This document shows positions 4,188 through 57,560 of a stretch of DNA of 64,000 bases, in pieces. Numbering within the stretch: position 1 is the first letter of the stretch; the number at the start of each line of letters is the position of its first letter. The notes below the pieces were generated by a model. That model was not told the origin of the DNA, ran no database searches, and worked only from the letters and a program-made list of their open reading frames with translations. The DNA is taken from the IMG/VR virus record IMGVR_UViG_3300037400_004417. One strand, written 5' to 3'. The stretch comes from a virus (lineage: Duplodnaviria; Heunggongvirae; Uroviricota; Caudoviricetes). The position numbers and the translations under genes are program-made.

Positions 4188-4608
4188 AATGCCTCTTAAT
4201 GTACCAAATAGCCTTGTTACAATCCTCTATAGTTTTAGCAGGATTCTTCTTGCCGGCGCGAGATAAATACTTTATAGCGTTACCTAAATGAAAGCCCAAG
4301 CCATTCTGCTCTATAAAATCAATAACTTCATACTTGCCATCGGTATAATGATTAGGATGATTAACGACATCTTCATTAGATGTTTTCGTAAATTCATTTT
4401 CTTTTTCGCTATCATCATATTCATCTATAAAATGATTAATATTTGCAATCGCGAATTCAAGTAATTTTAATTGACTTCGATGATAATTTTCCTGTTCAAT
4501 AATTCCTTGAAAAGTCACGATATCAATAATGGCTTCACCTAAATACGGATTTATCTTTTTATCTATAATATAATCAATAGGCTTAATACAATCTTTAAAA
4601 TCAACCAT
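4171..4608 (-). CDS. DUF3310-like phage protein
   Basis: NHPNHYTDGKYEVIDFIE...GNAIKYLSRAGKKN resembles the NHPxHY..KYL signature of the DUF3310 family. Confidence 0.45.
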   Translation of the reverse strand: MVDFKDCIKPIDYIIDKKINPYLGEAIIDIVTFQGIIEQENYHRSQLKLLEFAIANINHFIDEYDDSEKENEFTKTSNEDVVNHPNHYTDGKYEVIDFIEQNGLGFHLGNAIKYLSRAGKKNPAKTIEDCNKAIWYIKRHYDQFV

Positions 4609-4617
4609 AAAATAAAA

Positions 4618-5016
4618 TCACTTCTTTCTTCTATCGGCGGCAACAAAAGCCTTCGCTAAAGTGTCGATAGTGCTATGCCATATAGTATATTCTAAAGAGT
4701 TTTCATCAGGAGGTTCTAATTCTGCCATAGTACAATGTAATAGCTCATGAACTAGAGTCTGTTCCATATCTTGAGGAAAATCGCTGTAATCCGGATAATC
4801 AAGTGGATCTAGAAGCATAATCAAAGACTGTTTACTGACTAATGTAATACGATTTTCTCCCTGTGCGTTCTGTAAATTAAAATACGCTGCACGACCGATT
4901 TGAGCTTTGATATCCCATTCCTGTAATCTAAGTATCTTCTTCCACTTCTTTAAAGCTTTGTTTAACTGTTTCTGATTCTTGTATATCATACAATATTCCT
5001 TTTCCTTTTCTAGCAT
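4618..5016 (-). CDS. putative HExxH zinc metallopeptidase-like protein
   Basis: 132 aa with VHELLH motif. Confidence 0.3.
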   Translation of the reverse strand: MLEKEKEYCMIYKNQKQLNKALKKWKKILRLQEWDIKAQIGRAAYFNLQNAQGENRITLVSKQSLIMLLDPLDYPDYSDFPQDMEQTLVHELLHCTMAELEPPDENSLEYTIWHSTIDTLAKAFVAADRRKK

Positions 5017-5288
5017 TCAGGATATATCAGTAGCATATCATTGGCAAAATCATACTTATATAGATGTCGTCTACCCTTTGAAATATAAATAACAGGATGA
5101 TTATTTTTTAGATATGCTTCTTTATCTATGATGTATTCAGGATCATCTATAATCACATCATCGATTTTAATAGCTTTCTTCTGAATTAATCGTCTAGCTT
5201 CACCGCCAGCAGCACATATTTTTGTCTTGCATAAAAATCTTCTTATATTCATATTTTTGTATCCTTTCCTTTCCAAATCATATTCCAC
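5010..5288 (-). CDS. hypothetical protein
   Basis: 92-aa ORF. Confidence 0.3.
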   Translation of the reverse strand: MEYDLERKGYKNMNIRRFLCKTKICAAGGEARRLIQKKAIKIDDVIIDDPEYIIDKEAYLKNNHPVIYISKGRRHLYKYDFANDMLLIYPEC

Positions 5289-5824
5289 GCCTTGTAATCT
5301 GTAGTTCCCATTATAATATTAGCTATACATTGTAAACCAATACAAAGTTCTAAGGGTATATCAATAAAATAAATAGCTAATGCGGCGCCAAAGAATTGCC
5401 CACCTAAATTCCAAGCGGATTCAAACGACTCCCATTTAGTTAGGTTATCCCCTTTTATAATATTGTTAACAGCATTACGCATTAATACATACCAAAGATT
5501 TGTACTGACCGCATTAAGTACAGCTAAACCTAGAAACCTTACAGTAATATACTCCGTAGATAAGAATGAGACAATACAAAAGCATAATAAATCTATAATA
5601 ACTATGCTATAGAAATGTTTTTTGTACCATCTCATAATCCTGTCTACAGCAACTGAGCTATTAACTAAAGCAGCTAATCCCGTAGAAAGCATATTGGCGG
5701 CGGCAAATATTTCAGTAGATACTCTGGACACAAAATATATCTGAATGATAGGACTCGTTAAAGCAAAGATAAATGATACTAAAACAGGACCTGACAATAG
5801 ATAGAACTTTAGTTTATTGCTCAT
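5249..5824 (-). CDS. multi-pass membrane protein
   Basis: 191 aa, several hydrophobic helices. Confidence 0.45.
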   Translation of the reverse strand: MSNKLKFYLLSGPVLVSFIFALTSPIIQIYFVSRVSTEIFAAANMLSTGLAALVNSSVAVDRIMRWYKKHFYSIVIIDLLCFCIVSFLSTEYITVRFLGLAVLNAVSTNLWYVLMRNAVNNIIKGDNLTKWESFESAWNLGGQFFGAALAIYFIDIPLELCIGLQCIANIIMGTTDYKAWNMIWKGKDTKI

Positions 5825-8118
5825 ATAATTTTTTCTGCCGGTAACAATCTATCTTCATAATACATCTTTTCTATATCTTTAATAGTAAGATTACGGAGAT
5901 AATCAGCGCCGAATTTATCCTTCAAGTCCCTTATGATATTATAAACTCTTACATCCTGTTCAGTAGCAAAGTTCTTTCTGACAGTCTTATTCTTAGAAAT
6001 AGATTCTAATAAGCCTCTCTTATATTTCCAGTACTTATAGAAAGGAGTCTTATATTTGAACATAAATCCATTAGAGTCTTCAAAGACATATCCTTCATAA
6101 AAAGGTTCATTGTTGTTTTCATGAAAACTTATAAAAGACTGCAAGTTATCCCAAGAAAAGAAAAGAGCTTTCGGCTTTTTAACTTCTATTTTAAAATCTT
6201 CAGCTATTTTCTTAACTTCTTCATAAGGTTTCTTATTAAACTCAAAGGTATTCTCTATAATATCTAAAAGATATAGATGATCTTTTTCATACCATATAGG
6301 GTGAGAGCTGTCTCTACTATCTACAACTTCAAAGACCATAGTTATGTTATTCTCTTTCAGATAGGTCTCAATTGCTTCTCTTGCATCTGCTGGTAACTTA
6401 CTGAACTGATACTTGAGCATGTCAGAGTATTCACCAGACAACAATGTCTTAGAACAGAACAATAACTTATCTTGTTCTCTGTCATAAGAGATAAGACCTA
6501 AGAAACCGTTCTCTTTCTTGTAGGCTGTCACAGGAAATACTAAAGTATTTTTTAAGGCTTCATCTGTAGTATTCTCTGTTTCAAGCCTGTTAAAAAATTT
6601 AGAATATCCTCTCGCTGCGATATCTCCTGTACTATTATAAACAAATAAGCCTCGAGCAGTACAGGTAAGGTTATTCCATTCTCTGCGCTTAAAAGCGCCC
6701 TTCGTAAAATTGTAAGAAGTTATATGCCCCTGAACAGTCTTTTTAATCAGCTTTGACTTCTCTAGCTGATCAATAATCTCAGTTTTATTATTATCAGAAA
6801 CTGTCACGTTTTCATTAGCAAATACTATAGGAATAATTCTTTCGTTGGGTATAGTATTCTTAATACGATGAACAGTTATCTCAGAAACTTCTAGATTTTC
6901 TTTTTTCTTGATCTGAAGAATTCTTAAATCGCCGCCGGTTTCTACCTTATCACAGAGATTATAAATCTTATTCTTAACTACTTCAGTCTCAACATCATAT
7001 ACATTACGATGAGCATGAATAAAGATACAGTCTGTATCAGACTCTAGAACTTCGTATAGCTTATCAGTATCTTCATACTTACCGACACCGTTAATAAGCT
7101 GATAAGTAGGAGTAAACCAGTCTGGAGGAGTAGGATAGCCACCATGACAGATAAAATAATCTTCTCCGGCAAAATAAAAATAAGCCATCTGAGCGAACTT
7201 GCGGCAGAACTGTCTTAAATCCTTCTTAGAAATATCCTTAATCTGAGGCATTGTATATTCCAAGAACTCCGCAGACCTAATCTTCTGGTGCAGTAAATTC
7301 TTAAGTTCCTTTTTGCTTAAAGTATTTCTCTGTTCATCAGTGACAGGAATTTCGGCGCCGTTGTCATCAGCATACATCCTTAACCATTTTTCATGATTGC
7401 CTTCTAAGAATAATACATTCTTATTCTGAGACAAGTTCATTAAGAATTCCAATGTCTCCTTATTCTGTAAGCCTCTATCTAAATAGTCTCCGGTAAATAC
7501 ATAACCGATCTCATTGTCAAAAGGATGTTCGTCAAACCATTTTTTTAAAGGTTCATAACAACCATGAATATCTCCGAATACCTGTACTTCCTTATAGTTA
7601 GAGTAATCATAGAACGGTTCTTCGTTACAGATAAAATTGCTAGCTTCATCGGGAGTCAAAGTATGAAATCTCTTAGATACTTCTTTATCTGCTTCGAATA
7701 CGGCATACATTTTACGGATAACTGCTTCAGGAACGAATTTGTAAGCATCTCTTTTCTTGTTTCTTTCTAAAGCAGTTTCCAAAGGAACCTGAGTAAAGTC
7801 AACGATAAAGTTTCTGTAGCGGTACTTAGATACTAAGTTTTTGTATCTATTAAGAAGTTCACTCTTATAATGGGTAGCGTCAATGATAATAAGCTCGCCG
7901 CGTTCCATTCTCTGTTCTAGCAGCTCCATTAATAGATCCCATACTTTTCCATCATTATTCTGGGAAATAGTATAATTGCCGTCAATATTCATAATAGGAC
8001 ACTGATACAGCAATCTGATATTGTCAGCAGATAAAGTATATCTTTCTAAATCGTTATCCTTAATCCAAGTAGATTTTCCGGCACCCGGAGCACCTCTTAA
8101 TAAAAATAACATTCGCAT
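5821..8118 (-). CDS. Pnkp-like polynucleotide kinase / metallophosphoesterase / ligase-like end-healing enzyme
   Basis: 765 aa; N-terminal P-loop kinase GAPGAGKST; central calcineurin-type phosphoesterase motifs GDIHG, GDYLDRG, GNHE; roughly 300-aa C-terminal domain in the position of the ligase/adenylyltransferase domain of bacterial Pnkp. Confidence 0.55.
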   Translation of the reverse strand: MRMLFLLRGAPGAGKSTWIKDNDLERYTLSADNIRLLYQCPIMNIDGNYTISQNNDGKVWDLLMELLEQRMERGELIIIDATHYKSELLNRYKNLVSKYRYRNFIVDFTQVPLETALERNKKRDAYKFVPEAVIRKMYAVFEADKEVSKRFHTLTPDEASNFICNEEPFYDYSNYKEVQVFGDIHGCYEPLKKWFDEHPFDNEIGYVFTGDYLDRGLQNKETLEFLMNLSQNKNVLFLEGNHEKWLRMYADDNGAEIPVTDEQRNTLSKKELKNLLHQKIRSAEFLEYTMPQIKDISKKDLRQFCRKFAQMAYFYFAGEDYFICHGGYPTPPDWFTPTYQLINGVGKYEDTDKLYEVLESDTDCIFIHAHRNVYDVETEVVKNKIYNLCDKVETGGDLRILQIKKKENLEVSEITVHRIKNTIPNERIIPIVFANENVTVSDNNKTEIIDQLEKSKLIKKTVQGHITSYNFTKGAFKRREWNNLTCTARGLFVYNSTGDIAARGYSKFFNRLETENTTDEALKNTLVFPVTAYKKENGFLGLISYDREQDKLLFCSKTLLSGEYSDMLKYQFSKLPADAREAIETYLKENNITMVFEVVDSRDSSHPIWYEKDHLYLLDIIENTFEFNKKPYEEVKKIAEDFKIEVKKPKALFFSWDNLQSFISFHENNNEPFYEGYVFEDSNGFMFKYKTPFYKYWKYKRGLLESISKNKTVRKNFATEQDVRVYNIIRDLKDKFGADYLRNLTIKDIEKMYYEDRLLPAEKII

Positions 8119-13858: not shown

Positions 13859-14092
13859 GCACTTTTATTAATAACTTGAATTTCTTCAAGGATCGGACTA
13901 TATCTTTATGCTATTAATAGCATATCTTCCATTTGGATATATAAATCTACGAGCGTAATAGCTCTAGTCTCTGAACCGAGTATTCTTTAAGAATACGATG
14001 GCTGCTGATTGTCGGCGTCGTCAAATTCTTTTATTGACAACACTACGATTTCCAGCAATTAGGAAGATTTTACATGAGCTGTAGAAAAGTTA
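13859..14092 (-). ncRNA. group I intron, nrdD intron 3 (family A, ORF-less)
   Basis: S-like cggactatatcttt (13905) and gctgctgattgtc (13998) on plus strand; exon 3 ends GGT (U), intron ends G; joins ...FAAAMG to CRTRV. Confidence 0.6.
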
Positions 14093-14378
14093 ACCCATGG
14101 CTGCTGCAAAGGTACGATAATCTCCTTCTTTATAGTAAGGAGCATTAAATGATGAAGACGTATTAAGAAAATTAGGGAATAAACGCTTCGCACTTACTTT
14201 GCAAGCATACTGGAATAAATCATAATTAGGATCTCCTTTTTCAAGATTTATTCCTTTATGGATTTGGAATACAGATATTGGGAAAATTGCAGGCTCTCCT
14301 TTTCCCAATCCATTCCATACTGCTTCTAATAAATACTTAGATACTAATCTACCTTCCGGAGAAGTATCCATTCCGAAA
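14093..14378 (-). CDS. nrdD: NrdD exon 3
   Basis: continues the NrdD reading frame; stop at 14090 lies just inside the intron. Confidence 0.6.
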
Positions 14379-16440: not shown

Positions 16441-16694
16441 GGTCTGACTATATCATCATCTGTATGTTTGCTATTAAAATACAGATGCTAGGCACTTCAT
16501 ATATAGAATACTACTTGGTTATCACCAATAGTCGATTGACGGTCTATATTGTAAATAATAGTTTCGCACAGGATAACGTCGTAATAACGCTTCCCCTGTT
16601 AGCCTATCTTCTAATCATCATTTTCTATGATTCCTAAACGTAAGACAGACACCCCAGATTTCTGGGTTCACCTAGTTTTTCCATCGTAACTCAC
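16441..16694 (-). ncRNA. group I intron, nrdD intron 1 (family C, ORF-less)
   Basis: S ctgactatatca (16442) and R tagtcgattgac (16535) on plus strand; almost identical to the 5-prime gyrA intron. Confidence 0.55.
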
Positions 16695-21373: not shown

Positions 21374-21816
21374 CATTAATGTTATTTAATTTCATTTATT
21401 TTATAAAAAAATAAAATTAAATTTCCTATATTTAGGACTCTGATTTTCATCAGAAGTTCAGACTATATCTTCATCCTTATAAAAAAGGAGTCGAGCATTT
21501 CGATTTAAAGGACTTTCACCTACCTGATACCAGGCCCTACTCCTATTGGCATTTCAGCCCACAATGGGATAGTCGTTGAACCTTCTCCTTACTCCACAAG
21601 TGAAGGAGCTTGGCTGCTGATCGTCGATTTTTATTTGAATTTTAGGACTATATTTTTTTATAGCTTTTATTTCACCATGATTCATTTTATTGTTTCTTTC
21701 AGTCTTTCGACAACATTCGCACTTATTATTTCTAATTATGCTGTAGTACAATAAACTTTACGATGTCCCAGCAATTAACTCGATTTTTTCCTACACATTA
21801 CTGTATAGGGAGACCC
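21374..21816 (-). ncRNA. group I intron (family A, ORF-less) in the SNF2 helicase gene
   Basis: S cagactatatctt (21460), R gatagtcgttgaacc (21573), gctgctgat (21612) on plus strand; proposed junction DEIN|IQYIKSD with exon end U and intron end G. Confidence 0.55.
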
Positions 21817-36691: not shown

Positions 36692-37747
36692 TTAATTATC
36701 ATCTGCAGAAATAACATCTTCTGCTGCAATAGCTGCGGCCAAATCTTCTGCTTCTGATACTTCTTCCACCGGCGTAACTTCTCTAATAGAGGAATGAGAT
36801 TTCTTGCTGGACCGCTTAGTTTTCTTTTCAGCCTGTTCAATAAGTTCATCTAATGCCTCCTCTTCTGCTTTTATTTCCTCAATTTCTTCAGAAGATAATT
36901 CGCTACCACCATAGACAAGATTGGTCAAAGCTTCAAACTTATCAGGATTATTCCTCATATCTTCTCTGAATGCAACTTTACCATTCCATTTATCTACTTC
37001 TTCGCCGTCACTATTGTACTGGCGAATCCATGCACCTTTCATTTCAAGTATGCCTTTTTCTATGCCAGAATTAAGAGCAGAGAAAATAGTCTCTACGCCT
37101 TCTCCAAATAAAGCATAGTATTCAAGTTTTGTATAGGCAAACTTTTCAGGACGAACATGGTTCTTCTTAATAGTTACGCCTATCTTTACGCCTTCTTCTT
37201 TTGTAATTGGTTCTCCGGGGCCAATACTTTTCTTTCTCAAATCTAAAGTAAGATGAGACCAGTGCTTGATTGCTTGACCGCCTTTAAGGACTAATGGATC
37301 TTTAGACATGGTTCCTATATTGGTGGATAAATGACCAATTAAAATAAAGGCTGTCTCGAATTCAGCAATTAAGGCATTAAACTTGCGGTAAATGCGACTA
37401 TTTAACCGGGCCTGAACTGCTACTGTCGCTCCTTCGAAAGATGCTTCTGCCTCCTGACTAGGTAAAATCGCAGATAAAGAATTAATACATACTAAATCAA
37501 TAGCACCTTCTGAACCTTTCATTACTTCATAAAGAGTATCTAAGATTTTTTCAGCTGGCATACTAGAATCAATTGGTATATAATAAAATCTATCTGGATC
37601 TATATGGAATGTATCACAAACATATTCTTTCGTTAAAGAATTTTCAGCCTCTACCCAAGTCGCAATAAAAGACTCTCCTCCTGGAGCATTCATCGCTTTT
37701 CCGATAGATTCTAATACAAGTGAAGTTTTCTTTTGTACCCTTGTTTT
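36692..37747 (-). CDS. recA: RecA recombinase, exon 2
   Basis: KTRVQKKTSLVLESIGKAM...IDLVCINSLSAILP...GATVAVQARLNSRIYRKFNALIAEFETAFILIGHLSTNIGTMSKDPLVLKGGQAIKHWSHLTLDLRK. Confidence 0.8.
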   Translation of the reverse strand, partial: KTRVQKKTSLVLESIGKAMNAPGGESFIATWVEAENSLTKEYVCDTFHIDPDRFYYIPIDSSMPAEKILDTLYEVMKGSEGAIDLVCINSLSAILPSQEAEASFEGATVAVQARLNSRIYRKFNALIAEFETAFILIGHLSTNIGTMSKDPLVLKGGQAIKHWSHLTLDLRKKSIGPGEPITKEEGVKIGVTIKKNHVRPEKFAYTKLEYYALFGEGVETIFSALNSGIEKGILEMKGAWIRQYNSDGEEVDKWNGKVAFREDMRNNPDKFEALTNLVYGGSELSSEEIEEIKAEEEALDELIEQAEKKTKRSSKKSHSSIREVTPVEEVSEAEDLAAAIAAEDVISADDN

Positions 37748-38113
37748 CACAATATTTATATTAGGGAATAGACTATATCTTTACCATATCTTATAGTTAA
37801 TATAAGACTTAGGCACTCTGCACTTCCATTTAAGGGATTCTCACCCATCCTGTAAACGCAGGACCGTACTCTTGTAGCTGATTTTCACAGCCCCTCGCGG
37901 GAGATAGTCGTTGAACCCTTTTTATGTATCCATAAAATTAGGAAGCTGATTGTCTTATGATAATGCATATATCACTTAGATTTTCCAGCATTTCACAGAG
38001 TTTCTTACCTTATTATTTCTAACAAGGATGGCTTCTATTTAAATAATAAAATTTTTTTCTTTTTTTAATAAATTGTTTGTTCTAAATTTTTATGCAATAT
38101 TTAAATAGATTTT
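37748..38113 (-). ncRNA. group I intron (family A, ORF-less) inside the recA Walker A codons
   Basis: exon 1 ends IEDSG (GGT, U), intron ends G at 37748, exon 2 starts AAA ACA (KT); S aatagactatatcttt (37775), R gagatagtcgttgaaccc (37900). Confidence 0.7.
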
Positions 38114-38374
38114 ACCACTATCTTCAATACCTGTAATAATAGAACATCTTCTTCTTGGAAAGCCTCCGCTTACTTTACCGCTAATAGCCTTATTTAAATC
38201 TGGGCAAGCGGTAGGAATATACTTAATAGAAAGTTTTTCTTCAATTTCAGGGTTCTTACCGATTCGCCCCATTATAGTCTTACCGAATTTCTTATTGACC
38301 TTGTCAGTGATTTTATCTAATAACAACATCTTTTCAGCCAAAGTCTTTTGTTTAATAGGTTCTAAACTTGCCAT
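38114..38374 (-). CDS. recA: RecA recombinase, exon 1
   Basis: KKFGKTIMGRIGKNPEIEEKLSIKYIPTACPDLNKAISGKVSGGFPRRRCSIITGIEDSG. Confidence 0.75.
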
Positions 38375-38961: not shown

Positions 38962-41106
38962 CTATACCTCCGCTTTTTCTTCTTCAATCTCGTCTTCCTG
39001 CATAGGAGCAGAACTTACACTAGCAATAATATCATCTTTTTGAAGATTAACTATTTTAGAACCAGTTGCTGTTCTACTCATTACTTTTATACTAGATGCT
39101 GGAATTCTTATAGTCATACCTAACTGTGTGACAACAAATATAGTTTTGTCGTCTTCAGCAATCAGTATAATATTAATGGCGCCAGTATTTTTAGTAGGCT
39201 TATAGTAAGAGACACCTTTGCTTCCTCGATTAGTAATTCTTATATCTTCAGCATTCATTCTCTTAGCTATACCTTTGTCAGTAACGATAAGAAGCTGATC
39301 TTTGTTATTAGCTTTTAATACAGATACTACATAATCAGAATCATCTTTAAACTTAATTCCTGTTACTCCAGCTGCCGCACGCCCCATTAATCTTATATTA
39401 GATACAGGAGTTCTCACGGCAAAACCATTATTTGTAGCCAATAATACGATATCATTATCTTCTACTAAAGTACAGCCAATAATACTATCATCATCTTTAA
39501 TATTTATGACTTTAGCTCCAGATTTTGTAGAAGGCAAATCTTTAACAGAAAGTCTCTTACATAAACCTTTCTTTGAAGCGAAGAATAAAGTAACATTATC
39601 ATCATTTTCCTTAATCGGAACAATATTAATGATTTTTTCACTTTCTTCTAAAGAAACATAGTTTTGAACATATTTGCCAACAGATTTCTTTGATACAATA
39701 GGTATCTGATATGCCGGCAAAATATAAGCCTTACCTATATTAGTAATAAAGACCAAATTATCATGATTAGTTAAAGATATAATATTCTCAACAAAATCAT
39801 CATCTACTAACTTAGAAGATACTCCCTTGCCATTTTTCTTCTGAGCATTATATTCATTAGTTTTAACAGCTTTAATGATCCCTTTATGAGTAATCATTAT
39901 CATGATATCTTCTTTGGCAATATAATCTTTATCTGTTAAGGAATTTGTAGTCTCGCAAGATATCTCAGTAAGTCGTTCTTCCTTTTCGAATTTTACGGCA
40001 ACTTCATTTAATCTCAACTTTGTTTCATTAAGAAGCTCGAAATCATCATTAAGAATATTCGTTAAGTGTTGTATTTCTTTTGTAAGATTATTTATTTCTT
40101 CATTATATTCATCTATACTAATTTTCTTTAATGTTCTAATTTGTCTAGATAATATCGCAGAAGTTTGTTCTTCGTCTAAAGAATATAAGTCGTTAAATTT
40201 AGACACTATTTCTTCATCGCTATTTGCTTCTTTTATAATGTCTATAACTTCATTAATATTTGGAGTGATTATAGCAAAACCTTCCAAAATATGTAATCTC
40301 TTCTGTTTTCGCGGCAAATCATATTTTATTTTATTCCTTATAATTTCAATAGAATGCTCTAAGAATATTTCTAATAATTCTTTTAAAGTTAAATGTTCTC
40401 TAATTTTACCTTTAACCAAAGCTTGATGATTCATAGAAACAGTTGTCGCCATTTCTGTATCTTTTAATAATTTATTAATGGTAAGTTCAGTATTCACATT
40501 TTTCTTTAAATCTATAACTACCCTTATTCCATCTCGATCAGATTCGTCTCTTACTTCTTTTATGTCTGGAATAATATTATCTTTTCTAAGTTCATCTATT
40601 TTAGATACTAATCTAGATTTTATAACGCCAAAAGGAATTTCTGTAATAATAATACTTTCATTTCCCTTTTTGTCTATTTCTGTATGATACTTAGAACGAA
40701 TCTTTACAGATCCTTTTCCTTCTTTATATCCTTGATGAATCTCTTTTAATGATGTTATAATACCACCAGTAGGAAAATCTGGAGCTTTTATTATATCGAT
40801 TAATTCATCGTCTGTATATTCTTCTCCCTCTAATGTCTTATCTATTATATGATTAACAGCTTTGTAAACATCTTTAGCCATATGAGGAACAAAAGACGTC
40901 CCCATACCTACTGCTATACCACTTACGTAAGAACATAAGAGATTAGGGAATAATCCACTAAGGACAACAGTTTCTTTTTCTGATTCATCATAATTAGGTA
41001 CGAAATCTACAGTACCTTTATCTAAATCCGTCAGCATTAAATCGCCATATACTGATAATCTTCCTTCCGTATATCGCATCGCCGCCGGAGGGTCACCATC
41101 TAAATT
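38962..41106 (-). CDS. gyrA: DNA gyrase/topoisomerase IV subunit A, exon 3
   Basis: NLDGDPPAAMRYTEGRLS, VDFVPNYDESE, GIAVGMGTSF, C-terminal beta-pinwheel repeats (GRAAAGVTGIKF). Confidence 0.8.
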   Translation of the reverse strand, partial: NLDGDPPAAMRYTEGRLSVYGDLMLTDLDKGTVDFVPNYDESEKETVVLSGLFPNLLCSYVSGIAVGMGTSFVPHMAKDVYKAVNHIIDKTLEGEEYTDDELIDIIKAPDFPTGGIITSLKEIHQGYKEGKGSVKIRSKYHTEIDKKGNESIIITEIPFGVIKSRLVSKIDELRKDNIIPDIKEVRDESDRDGIRVVIDLKKNVNTELTINKLLKDTEMATTVSMNHQALVKGKIREHLTLKELLEIFLEHSIEIIRNKIKYDLPRKQKRLHILEGFAIITPNINEVIDIIKEANSDEEIVSKFNDLYSLDEEQTSAILSRQIRTLKKISIDEYNEEINNLTKEIQHLTNILNDDFELLNETKLRLNEVAVKFEKEERLTEISCETTNSLTDKDYIAKEDIMIMITHKGIIKAVKTNEYNAQKKNGKGVSSKLVDDDFVENIISLTNHDNLVFITNIGKAYILPAYQIPIVSKKSVGKYVQNYVSLEESEKIINIVPIKENDDNVTLFFASKKGLCKRLSVKDLPSTKSGAKVINIKDDDSIIGCTLVEDNDIVLLATNNGFAVRTPVSNIRLMGRAAAGVTGIKFKDDSDYVVSVLKANNKDQLLIVTDKGIAKRMNAEDIRITNRGSKGVSYYKPTKNTGAINIILIAEDDKTIFVVTQLGMTIRIPASSIKVMSRTATGSKIVNLQKDDIIASVSSAPMQEDEIEEEKAEV

Positions 41107-42237
41107 CATTTTGTTAATCGTTAAGTTTTTTATCTTAACTCTATATCTTGCGATACAGATCAGCATATATTTTTACGTATTTTTATCATTACTTCAAACG
41201 TAATCCGGTCTCTTGGTAGAATTATATCTTTTCATCTACTATGCGTTGCCCCTGAATATACTTAGTATATCCTTCGGTTCGCGTTTTCCTTGTTCAGGAT
41301 TTTCACGTTTAATACCAGATTAATAATCTAATTTCTTCATGAAGTTTTTGAAACTAGACGGCAAAAATTTAAATATCTATTGTATTTTCTGTCTAAATAA
41401 ATAGTAGCATCAGAATACATAAAATTTAATGCTTTTAAGATTTCTTGTTTTGCTGATATTCTGTATATGTATACATTTTTTCTAAATTTTACTTTGTAAG
41501 TAGTTTTTACACCAGCTAAACGTTCAAAGATATCTTTTATGTATTCCAATATATCTTTCCCCATGCCAAAACCTATTTCTCTATAATTATAGCCATAAGT
41601 TATCCATCCATCTCCATCAAAAATACCCCTTATATAATGATGAATAAGGTGTTCTGGAATTTGTTTTGCTGGCCTTTCGTTTAAAGTTTTAACACTGGAA
41701 AATCCTAAATTTATCAGGGCTTGATGTAAATGTTTATTAGTAATAGTTAATGTACTAACTAAAGCGGTATCACTATATCCACCACTTTTTCTGATTTCAA
41801 TCGGATGTTCAGATTCAATCGATTTTTTAAACTTTTCAACATGATTATGATCTGAATGCATAAGACTTAATCTAATTCCATTGCTCGATTTAAAAATACA
41901 ACCATCTGCGGTTAATAAACCAAGCCAATATGCTTTTTCTTCAGTGTCTATTACATCAAAGTAATTTTCATTTACATCATATATTCCCCGGATTTCATAT
42001 CTATTGTATTCTTTTAAATATTTGGCTAAAGTATCTCTTGATACTCCTAAATCTTTAGCACATTGGGTAATGCTTAGATCTTTATGTTGAGAAAAGTAAT
42101 TTACTGCATCTTCCCAAAATTTTTCGAGCATTTTTTGTTTGTTTAACATTTAAGAACACTTCTTTCTGTGGAAATAGTATACTTAAATTATTACCAAACA
42201 GCTTTAATGCTTTATACATAGATGTTTAAATTTGTTT
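41107..42237 (-). mobile_element. group I intron, gyrA intron 2 (family B-like core), carrying a LAGLIDADG HEG
   Basis: micro-exon ends ...QGNHG (GGT, U) at 42238; intron ends G at 41107; family-B motifs ccggtctcttggtagaattatatcttttca (41205) and ccttcggttcgcg (41270). Confidence 0.6.
41337..42149 (-). CDS. double-motif LAGLIDADG homing endonuclease with N-terminal HTH
   Basis: YWLGLLTADGCIF and YIRGIFDGDGWI. Confidence 0.8.
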   Translation of the reverse strand: MLNKQKMLEKFWEDAVNYFSQHKDLSITQCAKDLGVSRDTLAKYLKEYNRYEIRGIYDVNENYFDVIDTEEKAYWLGLLTADGCIFKSSNGIRLSLMHSDHNHVEKFKKSIESEHPIEIRKSGGYSDTALVSTLTITNKHLHQALINLGFSSVKTLNERPAKQIPEHLIHHYIRGIFDGDGWITYGYNYREIGFGMGKDILEYIKDIFERLAGVKTTYKVKFRKNVYIYRISAKQEILKALNFMYSDATIYLDRKYNRYLNFCRLVSKTS

Positions 42238-42333
42238 ACCATGGTTTCCCTGCATATCTACTAATGGATATCTTTGTTTAAAATCCTGAGACATATTTAC
42301 CATTGCTTCATATACTGATTGATCTCCATGAGG
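42238..42333 (-). CDS. gyrA: gyrA micro-exon (32 codons: [32 protein letters not shown])
   Basis: supplies the conserved PHGDSAVYD..RY.LVDGQGNFG block missing between the flanking exons; absent from the ORF track. Confidence 0.65.
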
Positions 42334-42635
42334 CAATTATATTACAAATATAATCTGACTATATCATCATCTTTGTTTTATACCAAAGAGCTAGGCGCTT
42401 CATGACAAGGAAATTCACCTTATTCATTACACTCTTATTTGAGTTAGTCGATTGACCTACTATTATATATAATAGATTGGCACAGGATAAAGCTAATTCA
42501 ACTGTCCCCTGTTAGCACTATCATTATATGTCATTTCCTACATACACAATTAATCGTTGATAGCACACCTTACATAATTATAAGTTCACCTAGTTTTCAT
42601 TATGATTCTCATCATAATGCCACCCGATTTCACAA
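42334..42635 (-). ncRNA. group I intron, gyrA intron 1 (family C, ORF-less)
   Basis: exon 1 ends ...GRYH (CAT, U) at 42636; intron ends G at 42334; S ctgactatatca (42357), R tagtcgattgac (42440); about 85% similar to nrdD intron 1. Confidence 0.65.
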
Positions 42636-42866
42636 ATGGTATCGCCCGAGGCATTCACCTACTGTTCTTGCACTCTTTTTATATGAAGTATTAGCATGTA
42701 GTCCTAATCCATTTAAAGACTGAAGTATTCTTCTCTGCACTGGTTTTAAACCATCTTCTGCAGCTGGAATGGCTCTTCCTTCAATTACGTCTTTTGCATA
42801 CAATAAATAATTCGTATACATATGTTCCGCAAAAGAAACTTCTTCTATATTTTTAACTTCGTTCAT
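42636..42866 (-). CDS. gyrA: DNA gyrase subunit A, exon 1
   Basis: [11 protein letters not shown]...[15 protein letters not shown]. Confidence 0.75.
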
Positions 42867-42884: not shown

Positions 42885-43556
42885 TTATTCTGAAATATTA
42901 TTTTCTGCGTTAATAACTTCAATAGAGTTAGCAGAAATTTCCTGTACAGAATATTCTAAAATATGGCCATTTTCTTCTTTACTGTAAGTTCTTGTCTGGA
43001 AACGTCCAATAGCTTTAATTTCGTCTCCAATTTTTAGATTCTTGGCTTCTTTTGCGACATTCCCCCAGCAAATTACGGGAATATAAAAACTCTTATTTCT
43101 CTTTAAATTGCACGCTACTGTTAAGTCTGTAATATATCTGCCAGTCTTAGATGTTTTACGGTATCTTGGTTCTTTAGAAATATAGCCTGTTAATTCAATA
43201 ATGTTTTGAGTTTTTCTTTCTGGTACTCTTTCATCGGAAAGAATATTATATTCTCTAACATATCCATAAACAAATCTATAACTACGCTCATTGAAAGTTC
43301 TATATTTAACTCTAACATCTCCTTTGACTTCAATAAAATCTCCTACTTTAATAGGAGTGGCCTTGATTAAGTCATTAGAAATTGTTAAAGGTAAAACATC
43401 AGTAGTACTGCTTAAACGATCAACTTCAAGCTTAATATTTGTATAACTATTTTCGTTGTTTTTACTAATATTATCTTCAATTTCTAAAACAACACCGTAA
43501 AGATACATCTTATTTTCATTAATATTTACTTGACTCATAAAAAACGTACACTCCAA
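42885..43556 (-). CDS. SSB-like protein with two OB-fold regions
   Basis: C-terminal half NIIELTGYISKEPRYRKTSKTGRYITDLTVACN...VICWGNVAKEAKNLKIGDEIKAIGRFQTRTY is a canonical SSB OB fold. Confidence 0.45.
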   Translation of the reverse strand: MECTFFMSQVNINENKMYLYGVVLEIEDNISKNNENSYTNIKLEVDRLSSTTDVLPLTISNDLIKATPIKVGDFIEVKGDVRVKYRTFNERSYRFVYGYVREYNILSDERVPERKTQNIIELTGYISKEPRYRKTSKTGRYITDLTVACNLKRNKSFYIPVICWGNVAKEAKNLKIGDEIKAIGRFQTRTYSKEENGHILEYSVQEISANSIEVINAENNISE

Positions 43557-43632
43557 TCTGTATTAAATTATATTATATATACAGATTGTATATCCATAAC
43601 TTAATACAGATATACAATCTGTTTGTCGTATA

Positions 43633-43797
43633 TCATAAATTTTGAAGAATATATTCTCTTCTTGCTTCTACATTATTACTCATACAAATTTCTAAAGCAT
43701 TTGCGGCGCTTTCACAATCATCTATCGTGATTCTCTTTAATCTGGCAATTTCAGGATTCATGGTTGTCTCCCAAAGCTGTTCAGGATTCATTTCTCC
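43633..43797 (-). CDS. gyrB: DNA gyrase subunit B, exon 4 (C-terminus)
   Basis: minus-strand translation (L)GEMNPEQLWETTMNPEIARLKRITIDD...; no ATG, so absent from the ORF track. Confidence 0.7.
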   Translation of the reverse strand, partial: GEMNPEQLWETTMNPEIARLKRITIDDCESAANALEICMSNNVEARREYILQNL

Positions 43798-44058
43798 TAC
43801 ATGTTTTTTCTTATGTTACCATAAGCACTGACTATTTCTTCGTTGAATATTTCAACGTTATCTTTTTCCCAATGCGTATCAATAGCATCAGTACTTCCCG
43901 ACAAAGGGAATAGTCGATACAGGATTAAGTATTTTTTACTTTTTCCCACGAGACATTCCTAAAAATATTTAGGACGGCCCTCGTTAGCTATATTAATGGT
44001 AATTATTAATATAACCCCGCTGATAAACGGAAAAGATAATAAGGGCTCGGATTCTCTA
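43798..44058 (-). ncRNA. group I intron, gyrB intron 3 (short, ORF-less)
   Basis: exon 3 ends KG + T (U), intron ends G at 43798; together these restore RYKGLGEMNPEQLW; R/S-like ggaatagtcgatac and cactgactatttc. Confidence 0.55.
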
Positions 44059-44275
44059 ACCCTTTATAGCGACTTACGCTATAACCATTCGTATCAAAAG
44101 CGTCCAATTCTTCTTTTGTATATAAATAATGTACTTCTTCTTTGTTTTTACTTATCTTCCTTGATACTTTAAATAGTGGTGGACAAGCCGCATATAAATA
44201 TCCAGCTTCTATAATAGGTCTCATATAATGATAAAAGAACGACATATGTAAGCAAGCAATATGCCCGCCATCAAC
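44059..44275 (-). CDS. gyrB: DNA gyrase subunit B, exon 3
   Basis: VDGGHIACLHMSFFYHYMRPIIEAGYLYAACPPLFKV...RYKG. Confidence 0.75.
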
Positions 44276-45446
44276 CGATTATACCCTTGCTTTTGCAATA
44301 TTTAAAAATTCATCATATATTTCTTTTTTTCTATCTAAATAAATGGTTGCATCTAAATACATAATGTTTAAAATTTTATATAATTGAATATTTCCTCCAA
44401 TATGTAATTCAAATGCATTATTATGAGGTACGATTTTTAAATTGTTTTTATTGAAATAACTAGATATACCTTTTAACATATCTTTAGTTCCAGTAAAACC
44501 CAAACAATATTTTTTTTGGTTATTGTAATTGTAATATGATAAAGATCCATCACCATCAAAATATCCTCGAATAAAATGATGTATTAAATCTTTCGGAACA
44601 ATATTGTCTGTTGGAAAATTTAATAAATATGTTTTGTGTTCGGCAACACCTTTATCTTTTAAATCATTTACAGTTTTGCTACTTGTTAACAGTATTTTTG
44701 CGAACATATTTTCTTTTGCAAATCCACTACCTTTATATATTTTAATAGGATTTGTAGCTTCAATATCTTTTTTAAATTTATATAAATGATTTATCTCTGA
44801 ATGTTTTAAAGTTATACCTATTTTTTGATTTGAATTTTCTCTTTTTGATTCAATAAAACCATCAGCATATAAAAATCCTAACCAATAAGCTTTATGCTCT
44901 GTATTTATTGTTTCAAAAAAAGATTCATTATGAAAATATTTTCTAGAATTTATAGAATTATTTCTAATTGTGATATTATGTTCTTTTAAAATATTCGATA
45001 GAGTTTTTCTATCATGATTGTATTTCTTTTCTAAAGAACGTAAAGATATGTTATTTTCATAATCAACAATTAAATTTTGCAATTCATTTATTGATAGATT
45101 TAATTTTTTTGCCATAAATACCATTCCTTTGTTATATATTTATATATTTATTACTACAAAGTAAATGATATTTATACAAATGGCGTAAATATATTTAATG
45201 TATAGGGTCTAGATCATATCTTCACCATATTTTTATATTGTCATAAAAACTTAGGTTGCTCCACTTCCTTCTTAAAATATATTATTTAGAAGTAAGTCCG
45301 AATGGACTGATCGTTGAACCTTCTTTATTTATTATAAAGATTGGCTGCGAATTGTCCATTTAATTTAAATAATAAAAAATGGATATCCTCGCAATTCAGA
45401 GCTCTTTAAATTATATCTTTCGATATAATACGACTGTTAAAATTCA
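44276..45446 (-). mobile_element. group I intron, gyrB intron 2 (family A), with a LAGLIDADG HEG whose stop lies 3 nt from the 3-prime splice site
   Basis: exon 2 ends ...MNDAD (GAT, U) at 45447; intron ends G at 44276; S ctagatcatatcttca (45215), R gactgatcgttgaacc (45307), ggctgcgaattgtcc (45343). Confidence 0.7.
44279..45124 (-). CDS. double-motif LAGLIDADG homing endonuclease with N-terminal HTH
   Basis: YWLGFLYADGFI and FIRGYFDGDGSLS. Confidence 0.8.
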   Translation of the reverse strand: MVFMAKKLNLSINELQNLIVDYENNISLRSLEKKYNHDRKTLSNILKEHNITIRNNSINSRKYFHNESFFETINTEHKAYWLGFLYADGFIESKRENSNQKIGITLKHSEINHLYKFKKDIEATNPIKIYKGSGFAKENMFAKILLTSSKTVNDLKDKGVAEHKTYLLNFPTDNIVPKDLIHHFIRGYFDGDGSLSYYNYNNQKKYCLGFTGTKDMLKGISSYFNKNNLKIVPHNNAFELHIGGNIQLYKILNIMYLDATIYLDRKKEIYDEFLNIAKARV

Positions 45447-46646
45447 ATCTGCATCGTTCATTAATATTATCTTATGATATCTTAATTTATCTAAATTAAA
45501 TTCTTCGCCTATCCCACACTTTAAAGCCTTTACTAAATCCATAATTTTTGGGCTTTTTAAAATTTTATCTAAGGTAGTTTTAGTAGAGTTTAAACCTTTA
45601 CCAAAAAATGGCAAGATTGCTTGAGTTCTTCTATCTCTTCCACCTTTAGCACTACCTCCTGCAGAATCGCCCTCTACTATAAATAGCATACATTCTTCGG
45701 GATTTTTAGAGCTACAGTCTGCTAATCCTTCTACGTGTCCACTATCTATAGCTTTAACACCTCTAGCGGTATCACGTGCTTTTCTAGCTGCTTCTCTAGC
45801 TTTTGCAGCCTTTAAAACTTTTTCAATAATTAAAGTACTTCTATTTTTATCTTGAGATAAGAAATCATATATATATTCTTCTATAGCCTCTTTTACGGAA
45901 GAATATATGTTTTTCATTCTAAGACGGCCTTTTCCCTGTCCTTCAAAAACAGGGTCCTTTAATTTAACAGAGACTATAGCTGTTAAACCTTCCTGACAAT
46001 CATCACTCGTGATTTGGCTAGCTTCTTTGATATGATTATATTCTAAAGCATATTTTCTAATTGCGTTAAATAATCCTGCTTTAAACCCTGTCTCATGATC
46101 GCCACCATAAATAGTGATTACATCATTAACGAAAGATTTAATATTAGGAGAAAATGTTTCAATATAAGACATAGCTATATCTATATCGACATTTCTCTCT
46201 ATATTCTCATTATTAAACTTTATAGTATACTGAGACGTCTTAGAGAAACTAATAGGTTCCAGTATCGGTGTTTTATTTGCGATAGATTCTTTTACATATC
46301 CAATTAATCCCTCCGGATAACAATAAGATTCATCTATCTTTACCGGCTTATTATCCTTATCTACAGAATCTACATAATAATTTAAAGTTAACCCTGGATT
46401 TAAATAGGCTAATCTTTTTATATGTTTATTTAATTCGATAAAATCGAACCATTCATCTTGCCATATATCTGAATCAGGGATAAAATGTATTTCTGTTCCC
46501 GTTACATCTTTCTCTATCTGTTCTCCTGTTTCATATAAAGGCTTCGTTAATAATCCTTTAGAATATTCAATAGCATATTCTTTTCCATTAGTTCTAACTA
46601 CTGCTTTAAAGAAATCAGATGTAGCATTTACACAACTTATACCTAC
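45447..46646 (-). CDS. gyrB: DNA gyrase subunit B, exon 2 (transducer and Toprim)
   Basis: VGISCVNATS..., EGDSAGGSAKGGRDRRTQAILP, KLRYHKIILMNDAD. Confidence 0.8.
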
Positions 46647-46902
46647 CATTTATGTTCGATTAAGGTCGCTAATCTTAATCCGTTCTCCTACGAACTGCTT
46701 TATGTTTCCATAAAGATCAGACTATATCTTTTTCGATTTTTCTTGAAAGTTTCTGTTTCCATTCGCTTGAATGTACGGCTTATTGCCTAGTCGTTGAACT
46801 CTATTATATAATATCAGCTGCTGATTGTCCTTATATTATAATATAAGGGGATTCCAGCATTTAAGAAACTTTTACAACGGCATATTTTTTTTATGCGGTT
46901 TT
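46647..46902 (-). ncRNA. group I intron, gyrB intron 1 (family A, ORF-less)
   Basis: exon 1 ends ...SGLNG (GGT, U) at 46903; intron ends G at 46647; exon 2 starts VGISCVNA, restoring GLNGVGISCVNA; S cagactatatcttt (46715), R gcctagtcgttgaac (46790), gctgctgattgtcc (46817). Confidence 0.7.
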
Positions 46903-47238
46903 ACCGTTTAAACCTGAAGTATTTGTTGTGTATCCATCTTGTGATGAAAACTTGCCACCTGCATGTAAAGAGCCTATTGCAAGCTCAATTTGACGTTTAT
47001 CTTCATATCCTGGAGTTTTAGAATATCCAATAGGGATACCGCCGCCATTATCTTCTACGATAACTTCTTTATCTATGATAGCGGTGGTTATGATAGAACA
47101 TCTCCCGGCGCTCGCTTCATCTCTAGAATTATCTAAAGCCTCATTAATACAATGATCAATAGAAGGGAGATACATTCCTCTTCTCATTCTAACATTGTCT
47201 GGAAAATCTAATACGCTTATTTGTGCTTGTTCCGCCAT
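46903..47238 (-). CDS. gyrB: DNA gyrase subunit B, exon 1 (GHKL ATPase N-terminus)
   Basis: VRMRRGMYLPS...EALDNSRDEA...VEDNGGGIP...LHAGGKF. Confidence 0.8.
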
Positions 47239-47883: not shown

Positions 47884-48333
47884 TTAAATTCTCTTATTCT
47901 TTAAACGATTAGAAAGAGCGGCTCTACTAGCCTTCTTATCTTCAGCACTTGATTCAGCCTTTGTGTCTTCTTCTGTATTGCTCTTTGGACCAACCTGACG
48001 AACATTATCTACATTAAGGAATAATTCTCCGTAATGCATATTTCCATCTTCATCCTCCCAGTTGTTATCCTTGCGAATTTCACCGACAATTGCGACATAA
48101 TCACCACGATTAATGTAATTATGCATAAAAGTAGCATTATGCCCCCACGCCTTGAATGGAATCAGATCCTCTGGATAATACTCATCATCCTTACCCTTAA
48201 GACTTCTTCTAATAGAAACACTACCCTGCATAAAATTCTTTGTTGGATCGGAAGCATTCTCCTTAAAATTATAACGAATCTTATCAGTGTTAGGGATACG
48301 GCCAATGCAATTAAAAGTGTTAAATGGATTCAT
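47884..48333 (-). CDS. ssb: single-stranded DNA-binding protein SSB
   Basis: MNPFNTFNCIGRI...DLIPFKAWGHNATFMHNYINRGDYVAIVGEIRKDNNWEDEDGNMHYGELFL plus acidic tail; start taken at the internal Met. Confidence 0.6.
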   Translation of the reverse strand: MNPFNTFNCIGRIPNTDKIRYNFKENASDPTKNFMQGSVSIRRSLKGKDDEYYPEDLIPFKAWGHNATFMHNYINRGDYVAIVGEIRKDNNWEDEDGNMHYGELFLNVDNVRQVGPKSNTEEDTKAESSAEDKKASRAALSNRLKNKRI

Positions 48334-48399
48334 AGTTATTTTCTCCTTGTGTTTTAAATAAAAATAATAATACAATAAGCTTATTTAAAAAGACAAACA

Positions 48400-55120: not shown

Positions 55121-55346
55121 CAGTCCACTTCCCTTATACTATCTTTGTCAGCTTCCGCTACGATAAATTTGTAAAAATATTACTACTTCTATAAATTTAT
55201 ACTTTAATACTTCTCACGAAGTATTTTCCTCGTTCATCGAATCCGATTTCGCCGAAGCTATTCTCGTTTGATATAATTCTCCGGAGGCTTAAATTCCCTA
55301 GTAGCGATAGGTACACGTTTAAGTGTTCTTCGAAAATTGAACGTTC

Positions 55347-57299: not shown

Positions 57300-57560
57300 T
57301 TACTGTCACCAGCAGACCTCCTTGTCTTTCGACAAGGCGCAGACTATATCTTCATCCTTCGCGATAAATCGCGGAGGAGCAGTATTTTTCTTCCGCCCTT
57401 AGCTTCCGGTTTTACTCTCCCTCAAGGAGATAGTCGTTGGAGGTCCCGCGTATCTTGATTTTTTAATCAAGACTTAGCGGTTTCCCTGCTAAACACCCAT
57501 TGTTTACGATACTTAGGACTGACGTTTCTAGACGGTCACTATTTATATTTCATCTAGTAC
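57300..57560 (-). ncRNA. orphan group I intron-like core (family-A R/S elements) with no recognisable host exons
   Basis: S gcagactatatcttcatcc (57340) and R ggagatagtcgttggagg (57430) at family-A spacing; unusually GC-rich; lies between the IS607 and a small upstream gene. Confidence 0.3.

Follow-up and report, generated by a model that had tools for sequence, protein, structure and literature searches.

The window, a 64,000-nucleotide (nt) stretch from the Caudoviricetes virus record IMGVR_UViG_3300037400_004417, carries on its minus strand a gyrB-like gene that is broken into four pieces between positions 47238 and 43633. The three insertions that separate the pieces are non-coding or bear an open reading frame (ORF), and conventional gene calling breaks the gene into four or five fragments. 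The locus raises the question of whether the pieces encode one protein and, if so, how the insertions are removed. The analysis indicates that this is very probably one type IIA topoisomerase B gene of a large low-GC phage, and that its three insertions are group I introns that would be self-spliced to give a protein of 639 residues. Coordinates are those of the window, RNA motifs are read on the minus strand, and a caret marks an insertion point. The features of the locus are collected in Table 1.

The spliced gyrB product and the intron boundaries

Joining 47238-46903, 46646-45447, 44275-44059 and 43799-43633 produces a 1920-nt ORF of 639 codons and a stop which, with intron 3 set at 43800-44058, reads RYKGLGEMNPEQLW. 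The spliced product contains the Pfam domains HATPase_c, DNA_gyraseB (3e-42), Toprim and DNA_gyraseB_C (1e-23). It aligns end to end with Escherichia coli GyrB (E = 6e-121), with no insertion or deletion at SGLNG^VGISCVNA, MNDAD^VDGGHI or RYKGL^GEMNPEQLW, and is also matched over its full length by other GyrB/ParE structures, including Streptococcus pneumoniae ParE. The catalytic motifs VEGDSAGGS, MNDADVDGGHI, GLNGVGIS and EGQGKGR are intact and aligned with those of the E. coli enzyme, two of the four being restored by splicing alone. With this domain set and these motifs, the spliced product is a type IIA topoisomerase B subunit (GyrB/ParE). The insertions lie in highly conserved motifs, namely the ATP lid (GLNG^VG), the Toprim domain (DAD^VDG) and the C-terminal YKGL^GEM, and insertion into the most conserved codons of an enzyme is typical of homing targets. 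The closest annotated phage GyrB is about 40% identical, and a megablast comparison of the whole region with annotated phages yielded nothing beyond a 34-nt chance match.

The boundaries of the introns were established from naturally uninterrupted alleles. A search for related loci in IMG/VR with exon 2 returned none, and the relatives came from a protein search with the spliced product, which revealed two near-identical metagenomic sequences: P0001 (97% identity), on contig L001 (Logan SRR27369429), and P0002 (99% identity), on contig L002 (ENA ERZ28436068). P0001 begins with MVGISC, is continuous across MNDADVDGGHI and then enters the same intron 3 read-through peptide; P0002 is continuous across SGLNGVGISCVNA. 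At the nucleotide level (blastn), L001 lacks intron 2, window positions 45447 and 44275 being adjacent, and L002 lacks introns 1, 2 and 3 (46903/46646, 45447/44275 and 44059/43799 adjacent). The window spliced in silico is identical to the uninterrupted alleles over about 30 nt on either side of all three junctions. The introns are therefore placed at 46647-46902, 44276-45446 and 43800-44058, positions that L001 and L002 confirm as natural empty-site alleles. All three introns show presence/absence polymorphism among genomes that are 97–99% identical.

For intron 3, the comparison with the empty site leaves three equivalent placements, because the intron and exon 4 both start with UA, and all three correspond to one and the same mRNA. 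The group I rule, with U before the 5' splice site and G as the last intron base, selects 44058..43800. The terminal G of introns 1, 2 and 3 lies at 46647, 44276 and 43800, respectively, and in each case the U that precedes the intron pairs with a G of the internal guide sequence.

The initial annotation had proposed four exons reconstructed to the nucleotide, and this stands for the first two junctions, SGLNG^VGISCVNA and MNDAD^VDGGHI, which are exact, in frame, and restore GyrB motifs in the ungapped alignment with the E. coli protein. The 3' end given for intron 3 was 2 nt off. The proposed interval (43798-44058, 261 nt) mixed the start of one placement with the end of another, so that the exons as first delimited join to 1918 nt and shift frame after RYKG (RYKGWRNES-stop). 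With the true length of 259 nt, the joined exons translate into a full GyrB with no missing or duplicated segment, and the protein junction that had been proposed, RYKG+L^GEMNPEQLW, is retained.

Relatives of the gene harbour further introns. L002, which lacks introns 1–3, has another group I intron after VEG (its positions 1418-2674), and this one carries an ORF of the HNH type. The apparent 3' junction of that intron falls at SAKGG, so that the 15 nt for DSAGG (window about 45669-45655) are absent; a genuine deletion allele, an assembly error or an unlocated splice site could account for this. In the GyrB relative L012, a different intron (4507-5830) follows DADAD, 6 nt downstream of site 2, and has its LAGLIDADG gene upstream of the ribozyme core, so several unrelated introns target the same Toprim motif. 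An intron of L011 (358-770), at site 1, seems to follow A, in departure from the U.G rule.

Table 1. Coordinates of the gyrB exons, introns and intron elements, and of the introns in the neighbouring gyrA-like gene.
Feature	Position in window	Strand	Description
gyrB exon 1	46903..47238	-	112 codons, MAEQ...SGLNG; N-terminal ATPase part; contiguous with exon 2 in L002
Intron 1	46647..46902	-	Group I, IA2-like, 256 nt, phase 0; ATP-lid site GLNG^VG
gyrB exon 2	45447..46646	-	400 codons, VGISCVNA...ILMNDAD
Intron 2	44276..45446	-	Group I, IA2-like, with endonuclease gene, 1171 nt, phase 0; DAD^VDG
Intron 2 ribozyme core	45200..45446	-	Whole core upstream of the ORF
Endonuclease gene	44279..45115	-	LAGLIDADG; in P9 loop of intron 2; stop UAA 44281-44279
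Intron 2 3' module	44276..44287	-	P9 3' strand AGGGU (44287-44283) and tail AUAAUCG; final G 44276
gyrB exon 3	44059..44275	-	217 nt; VDGGHI...RYKG and first base of Leu codon
Intron 3	43800..44058	-	Group I, IA-like core, atypical periphery, 259 nt, phase 1; RYKG-L^GEM
Intron 3 P1 and P10	44041..44064	-	Covary with exon sequence across the family
Intron 3 P3 5' strand and hairpins A, B	43986..44039	-	Before J3/4
Intron 3 core	43830..43984	-	P4-P8, P3', P7'; family covariation
Intron 3 P9 and tail	43800..43825	-	Hairpin 43825-43810, GUAA (GNRA) loop; last G 43800
gyrB exon 4	43633..43799	-	Last two Leu-codon bases, GEMNPEQLW...QNL, stop
gyrA intron A	about 42334-42635	-	302 nt, GRYH^PHGD; follows U, ends with G
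gyrA intron B	about 41107-42237	-	1131 nt, GNHG^NLDGD; follows U, ends with G

Introns 1 and 2 and the endonuclease gene

Intron 1, which has no ORF, matches the Rfam model RF00028 with 61.7 bits (gathering score, 50). Its P1 is formed by exon bases AACGGU (46908-46903) and, 21 nt into the intron, GCCGUU (46881-46876), so that U.G falls at the splice site. The P7 strands, GACUA and UAGUC (46792-46788 with 46724-46720), and J8/7 fit the consensus, and the Rfam alignment places two hairpins in the IA-specific P7.1/P7.2 position. The strand order is canonical in introns 1 and 2.

Intron 2 was not picked up by the Rfam scan of the whole window; a separate search with its core (45456..45199) gave an RF00028 match over the full length (38 bits, E = 2e-8). 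In P1, GAU^UG pairs with CAGUC (45449-45445 and 45436-45432). The core further comprises P2 with a GAAA loop, P3, P4-P6, P7, P7.1, P7.2 and P8, the insertions at the P7.1/P7.2 position being present in its Rfam alignment as well. P7 is formed by GAUCA (45312-45308) and UGAUC (45216-45212), a double change with respect to the usual GACUA/UAGUC. An intron without an ORF is found at exactly the same DAD^VD site in L011, which encodes a more distant GyrB (P0040). When intron 2, with its ORF deleted, was folded together with the L011 intron by RNAalifold, P1-P6, P7.1, P7.2, P8 and P9 were recovered, with 15 of 68 pairs compensatory. A search of IMG/VR with the J6/7-P7 pattern of intron 2, GGTTCAACGATCAGTCC, returned four matches of high GC content and no intron features, which were read as chance.

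The 3' part of the ribozyme is split by the endonuclease gene. P7' is followed by UAG and by the 5' strand of P9, ACCCU (45208-45204), the partner of which, AGGGU, belongs to the 3' module; the arms bracket the ORF as ACCCU...AGGGUAUAAUCG. The 3' end of the intron, GGGUAUAAUCG, is identical in the L011 intron, the P9 loop of which contains only a small GAAA-capped hairpin, and the P9 loop of the window intron spans about 920 nt, ORF included. The same module occurs in the unrelated introns L009, L029 and L030, and a search with the pattern GAAGATATGATCTAGNCC retrieved two other introns that share the 3' module only. CCCG/CGGG in L012 was considered as P9 covariation and rejected, as the additional G and C are part of inner hairpins.

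Intron 2 is the only one of the three that carries an ORF. The encoded protein, of 278 residues, contains the motifs LGFLYADGF and IRGYFDGDGS and, because there are two LAGLIDADG motifs, it is predicted to be a monomeric two-domain enzyme. It matches Pfam LAGLIDADG_3 with 24.5 bits (cut-off, 22.5) and phrog_4645, annotated as 'endonuclease' (1.5e-57), and similar proteins of Bacillus phage 0305phi8-36, Twort-like phages and crAss-like phages have been annotated as intron endonucleases. In L009, where GyrB is only 47% identical, the P9 loop of the intron at this site holds an orthologue (62% identity), and a paralogue with 38% identity is found within the window, in a gyrA intron. Two start codons are available, AUG 45115, with AAAGGA 9 nt upstream, and the in-frame AUG 45124; the former is the likely start, since the L009 orthologue begins with MAKKL. 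A scan of the region for sigma-70 promoters gave chance-level results (30 found and 26 expected). Around DAD^VDG, the window has the same sequence as L001 and L002, which represent candidate cleavage targets; the sequence of their intron-less site is AATGAACGATGCAGAT upstream of the insertion point and GTTGATGGCGGGCAT downstream of it.

The end of the endonuclease gene, AGG GUA UAA, constitutes the 3' strand of P9 and the start of the conserved tail. The overlap between the gene and the 3' structural elements of the intron that had been suggested in the initial annotation is therefore true, and small: two sense codons and the stop, or eight bases. Of the two pairings named there for inspection, the 3' strand of P9 does include endonuclease codons; P10 involves the guide and exon 3, not the ORF. 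As had been noted, the stop codon shares the frame of exon 3 and precedes the 3' splice site by 3 nt. This frame match is a coincidence and is not conserved, as the orthologue in L009 ends 10 nt short of the splice site.

Structure of intron 3 and alternatives to splicing

Intron 3 has no ORF, and its RNA folds far better than shuffled sequences (z = -4.9). The structure was scored on an alignment of 13 family sequences, and comprises 15 helices with 75 pairs. In this alignment, 94.9% of the cells are paired, compared with 38–47% when partners are slid, 38 of the 75 pairs are doubly changed, and none of 500 shuffles reaches the covariation score. P1, with U.G at the splice site, pairs exon bases AAGGGU (44064-44059) with GCCCUU (44046-44041) of the guide, and P10 pairs the guide UCCGA (44051-44047) with UAGGA of exon 4, so that both helices share one guide region. 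The guide tracks the exon across the family, as illustrated by GGCU/GGCC in L015 and GGAU/GUCC in L041. In the homologue L005, a C at position -1 lies opposite a guide A, forming a C.A wobble; this departure from the U.G rule is listed for L005/L006.

The 5' strand of P3 (44039-44031) is followed by hairpin A (44030-44017) and hairpin B (44016-43986), and five, three and three pairs, respectively, are changed on both sides. P4-P5 (43984-43948) and P6 (43947-43922) precede P7 (GACUA, 43915-43911), P7.1 (43910-43895) and P7.2 (43891-43869), the loop of which is UAUUGAUAC. P7.1 and P7.2 stand in the IA position, with three and seven covarying pairs. P3' (43867-43858), P8 (43857-43841), J8/7 (AAGAAA) and P7' (UAGUC, 43834-43830) complete the core, and five of the six pairs of P9 are doubly changed. 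The long-range P3 abuts P8 and crosses P7, forming the P3/P7 pseudoknot. The element departs from the canonical strand order in that P2 is absent and J3/4 is separated from P3 by hairpins A and B. Four bases of L7.2, UGAU, are paired with the AUCA loop of hairpin A, and both sides become ACCA/UGGU in 5 of the 13 members; the contact is paired in all 13, and further metagenome members agree where both loops are readable. Pairing of J6/7 (GUAUC) with L7.2 (GAUAC) was also considered, and was rejected because L003 breaks it and the hairpin A loop covaries perfectly. Most relatives (L005, L007, L014-L019, L024) have a larger P8 than the plain 7-base-pair (bp) hairpin of the window, with an internal loop, CAC-GAU-GA-AGAC / GUCU-GA-GUG, that resembles a kink-turn.

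The first homologues of intron 3 came from GyrB genes with 50–56% identity, where they occupy the same RYKG-L^GEM site (L003-L008). A search with the P4/P5 pattern revealed 11 more in IMG/VR and 14 matches in metagenomes, 13 of them with the flanking elements of the family and one (L032) without; the same pattern was found in none of 185,579 bacterial and archaeal genomes. Nearly all members occupy RYKG-L^GEM, and L023 and L035 are located at the Toprim site EG^DSAGG. At least seven IMG/VR members lie on contigs of 86–260 kb, and one metagenome member on a contig of 303 kb. Relatives bear GIY-YIG ORFs in P6. A blastn comparison of intron 3 with annotated phages (distant mode) gave no match, and in the 60 best annotated phage records, tblastn with exons 3 and 4 showed site 3 to be unsplit. 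We tentatively consider, as a possibility that falls somewhat short of an even chance, that intron 3 belongs to an undescribed group I lineage with an IA core, no P2, hairpins A and B and a kissing contact, which is missed by Rfam and specialised on the type IIA topoisomerase B sites YKGL^GEM and EG^DSAGG. The lineage is set apart relative to the Rfam model RF00028. If it proves to be one, phage intron counts would be underestimated.

The RF00028 matches of introns 1 and 2, the comparative structures of introns 2 and 3 and the LAGLIDADG ORF together support what had been claimed at the outset, i.e., three group I introns in gyrB, one of them with a homing endonuclease gene. Several points weigh against this reading of the locus as one self-spliced gene. 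The protein is classed as GyrB-like, and may be either a supercoiling gyrase or a topoisomerase IV-like enzyme. Intron 3, searched as an isolated region, has no RF00028 match even at E <= 10, and none of the seven family members scanned was detected at E <= 1. P4 and P7 are invariant in that family, so that covariation is uninformative there. For intron 2, the 38 bits lie below the curated Rfam gathering score of 50, P1 has just 5 bp, and the CCC/GGG core of P9 is invariant, which leaves conservation and RNAalifold, rather than covariation, as the support for this helix. Finally, self-splicing, endonuclease activity and homing are all extrapolated from general group I and homing biology.

Since RF00028 matches neither intron 3 nor its seven relatives, and two hairpins between P3 and J3/4 are foreign to the canonical group I layout, the element might be some other structured insertion, for example a ribozyme of unknown class or one excised by a protein factor of the host or the phage. 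This is very unlikely in view of the guide helix, which covaries with the exon and places U.G at the 5' splice site, the P10 that covaries with the 3' exon, and the terminal G. The P3/P7 pseudoknot beside P8, with P7.1 and P7.2 in the IA position, also argues for a group I intron, as do P7 (GACUA/UAGUC) and J8/7 (AAGAAAUAGUC), which equal the IA2 consensus of the Rfam alignments of introns 1 and 2, and the exact absence of the element from L002.

A permanently fragmented gyrB appears slightly less probable still. The insertions would then stay unspliced, and the pieces would be dead or act as separate subunits, like T4 genes 39 and 60; gene callers do report the pieces as separate ORFs, and by chance an ATG lies near the start of the pieces with exons 2 and 4. 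Exon 3, however, has neither a start codon nor a ribosome-binding site, a start at the ATG of exon 4 would drop the conserved GLGE residues, and the breakpoints fall within the ATP lid, the acidic motif of Toprim and YKGLGEM. Moreover, ribozyme features and exact U...G boundaries are present in all three insertions, and the exons are undecayed, with 97–99% identity to the uninterrupted alleles. Gyrase genes are known intein targets, as in the MarsHill GyrA intein (bioRxiv 10.1101/2020.12.14.422802), but removal at the protein level is refuted by the in-frame stops that the exon frames meet within a few codons of the insertion (e.g., GLNG-KTA-stop and DAD-stop), with no long ORF in introns 1 and 3 and no Hint/intein domain found with Pfam.

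With three self-splicing group I introns as the preferred reading, splicing would start with the formation of P1, in which the last exon bases pair with the internal guide and leave a U.G wobble at the 5' splice site. Free guanosine would attack this site, and the freed exon end would then attack after the terminal G of the intron, joining the exons. In intron 3, hairpin A would contact the P7.2 loop by a 4-bp kissing interaction. The endonuclease, expressed from the P9 loop with its own ribosome-binding site, would cut intron-less gyrB of the L001/L002 type at DAD^VDG in a co-infecting phage, and repair would copy intron 2 into the gap. Introns 1 and 3 may be remnants left after loss of an endonuclease, or may be spread through co-conversion or by help supplied in trans; cycles of endonuclease gain and loss would fit, because both lack an ORF while relatives of intron 3 have GIY-YIG genes.

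Neighbouring elements and known systems

A GyrA-like partner with a C-terminal beta-pinwheel domain is encoded downstream of gyrB (38962-42866, minus strand), and its gene is also split, by introns A and B. Intron B contains the paralogous LAGLIDADG gene (41337-42149) and, judging from called ORFs, seems to be absent from L001. Further downstream, a RecA/UvsX-like gene (38374..36692, minus strand) is split in its P-loop codons (DSGK^T) by an insertion at about 37751-38089. This insertion, undetected by Rfam at the gathering threshold, contains R and S elements of the IA2 type, UUCAACGACUA (at 37914) and AGAUAUAGUC (at 37780). Elsewhere on the minus strand, RF00028 matches 13874-14148 with 85 bits, and R/S motif pairs at 57351-57440, 21470-21579 and near 16538 suggest further group I introns. 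A RAGATH-18 RNA motif is located at 55226-55287 (minus strand; 66.4 bits, gathering score 44.9). Directly after the gyrB stop, a near-perfect hairpin of about 22 bp (43571-43626, minus strand) may be a terminator or an RNA-processing hairpin; its Rfam microRNA match is spurious. An SSB/OB-fold gene (42885-43556, minus strand) lies between gyrB and gyrA, and a second SSB gene at 47884-48375. The order ClpP, ClpX-like, SSB, gyrB, SSB, gyrA, recA-like is common to all related contigs.

The gyrB case does not change how group I introns are thought to work. With three introns in one essential gene, and alleles with and without them, the locus is usable for studies of homing, of intron gain and loss, and of splicing order. 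It also provides an instance in which standard annotation fails, as only two of about nine candidate introns in the window pass the Rfam threshold. The intron 3 family adds a covariation-backed model with a testable tertiary contact, and all eight of its scanned members are missed by RF00028.

The td, nrdB and nrdD (sunY) introns of T4 are IA2 introns in which the endonuclease ORF is looped out of the ribozyme, and the gyrB introns share with them the IA2 core, P7.1/P7.2, an ORF that has its own translation signals and lies in a peripheral loop, and the homing lifestyle. The sunY ORF lies downstream of the ribozyme core, as it does in gyrB intron 2. By contrast, the T4 enzymes are of the GIY-YIG or HNH type, and that of gyrB intron 2 is a LAGLIDADG protein, the ORF of which ends 3 nt short of the splice site, inside the conserved 3' tail.

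Twort orf142 is a known case of a single phage gene with three group I introns (Landthaler & Shub 1999, as cited in PMC11878797); the DNA polymerase and terminase genes of Bastillevirinae contain two or three (PMC11878797). Here, too, IA-type introns, some with endonucleases, interrupt one essential phage gene, and their content varies among relatives; unlike in those systems, the gene is gyrB, the third intron is not seen by Rfam, and extra hairpins are present between P3 and J3/4. An intron-split gyrase B has been described in MarsHill-like Staphylococcus aureus jumbo phages, and two introns in gyrase A of AR9 (bioRxiv 10.1101/2020.12.14.422802). The window agrees with these in that introns and inteins repeatedly target the genes of gyrase subunits in large phages; the MarsHill and AR9 introns were derived from protein alignment only. 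The Jug (jumbo gut) phages have about 18.5 group I introns per genome, many of them confirmed as spliced by metatranscriptome reads (PMC12880540). The window resembles such intron-dense genomes of large phages, with about nine candidates in 64 kb; detection of the Jug introns relied on published covariance models, and these may or may not recognise the family of intron 3. Phage genes with several introns and jumbo-phage gyrases split by introns are thus already on record, and the architecture of intron 3 might be the one feature of this locus that is new in kind.

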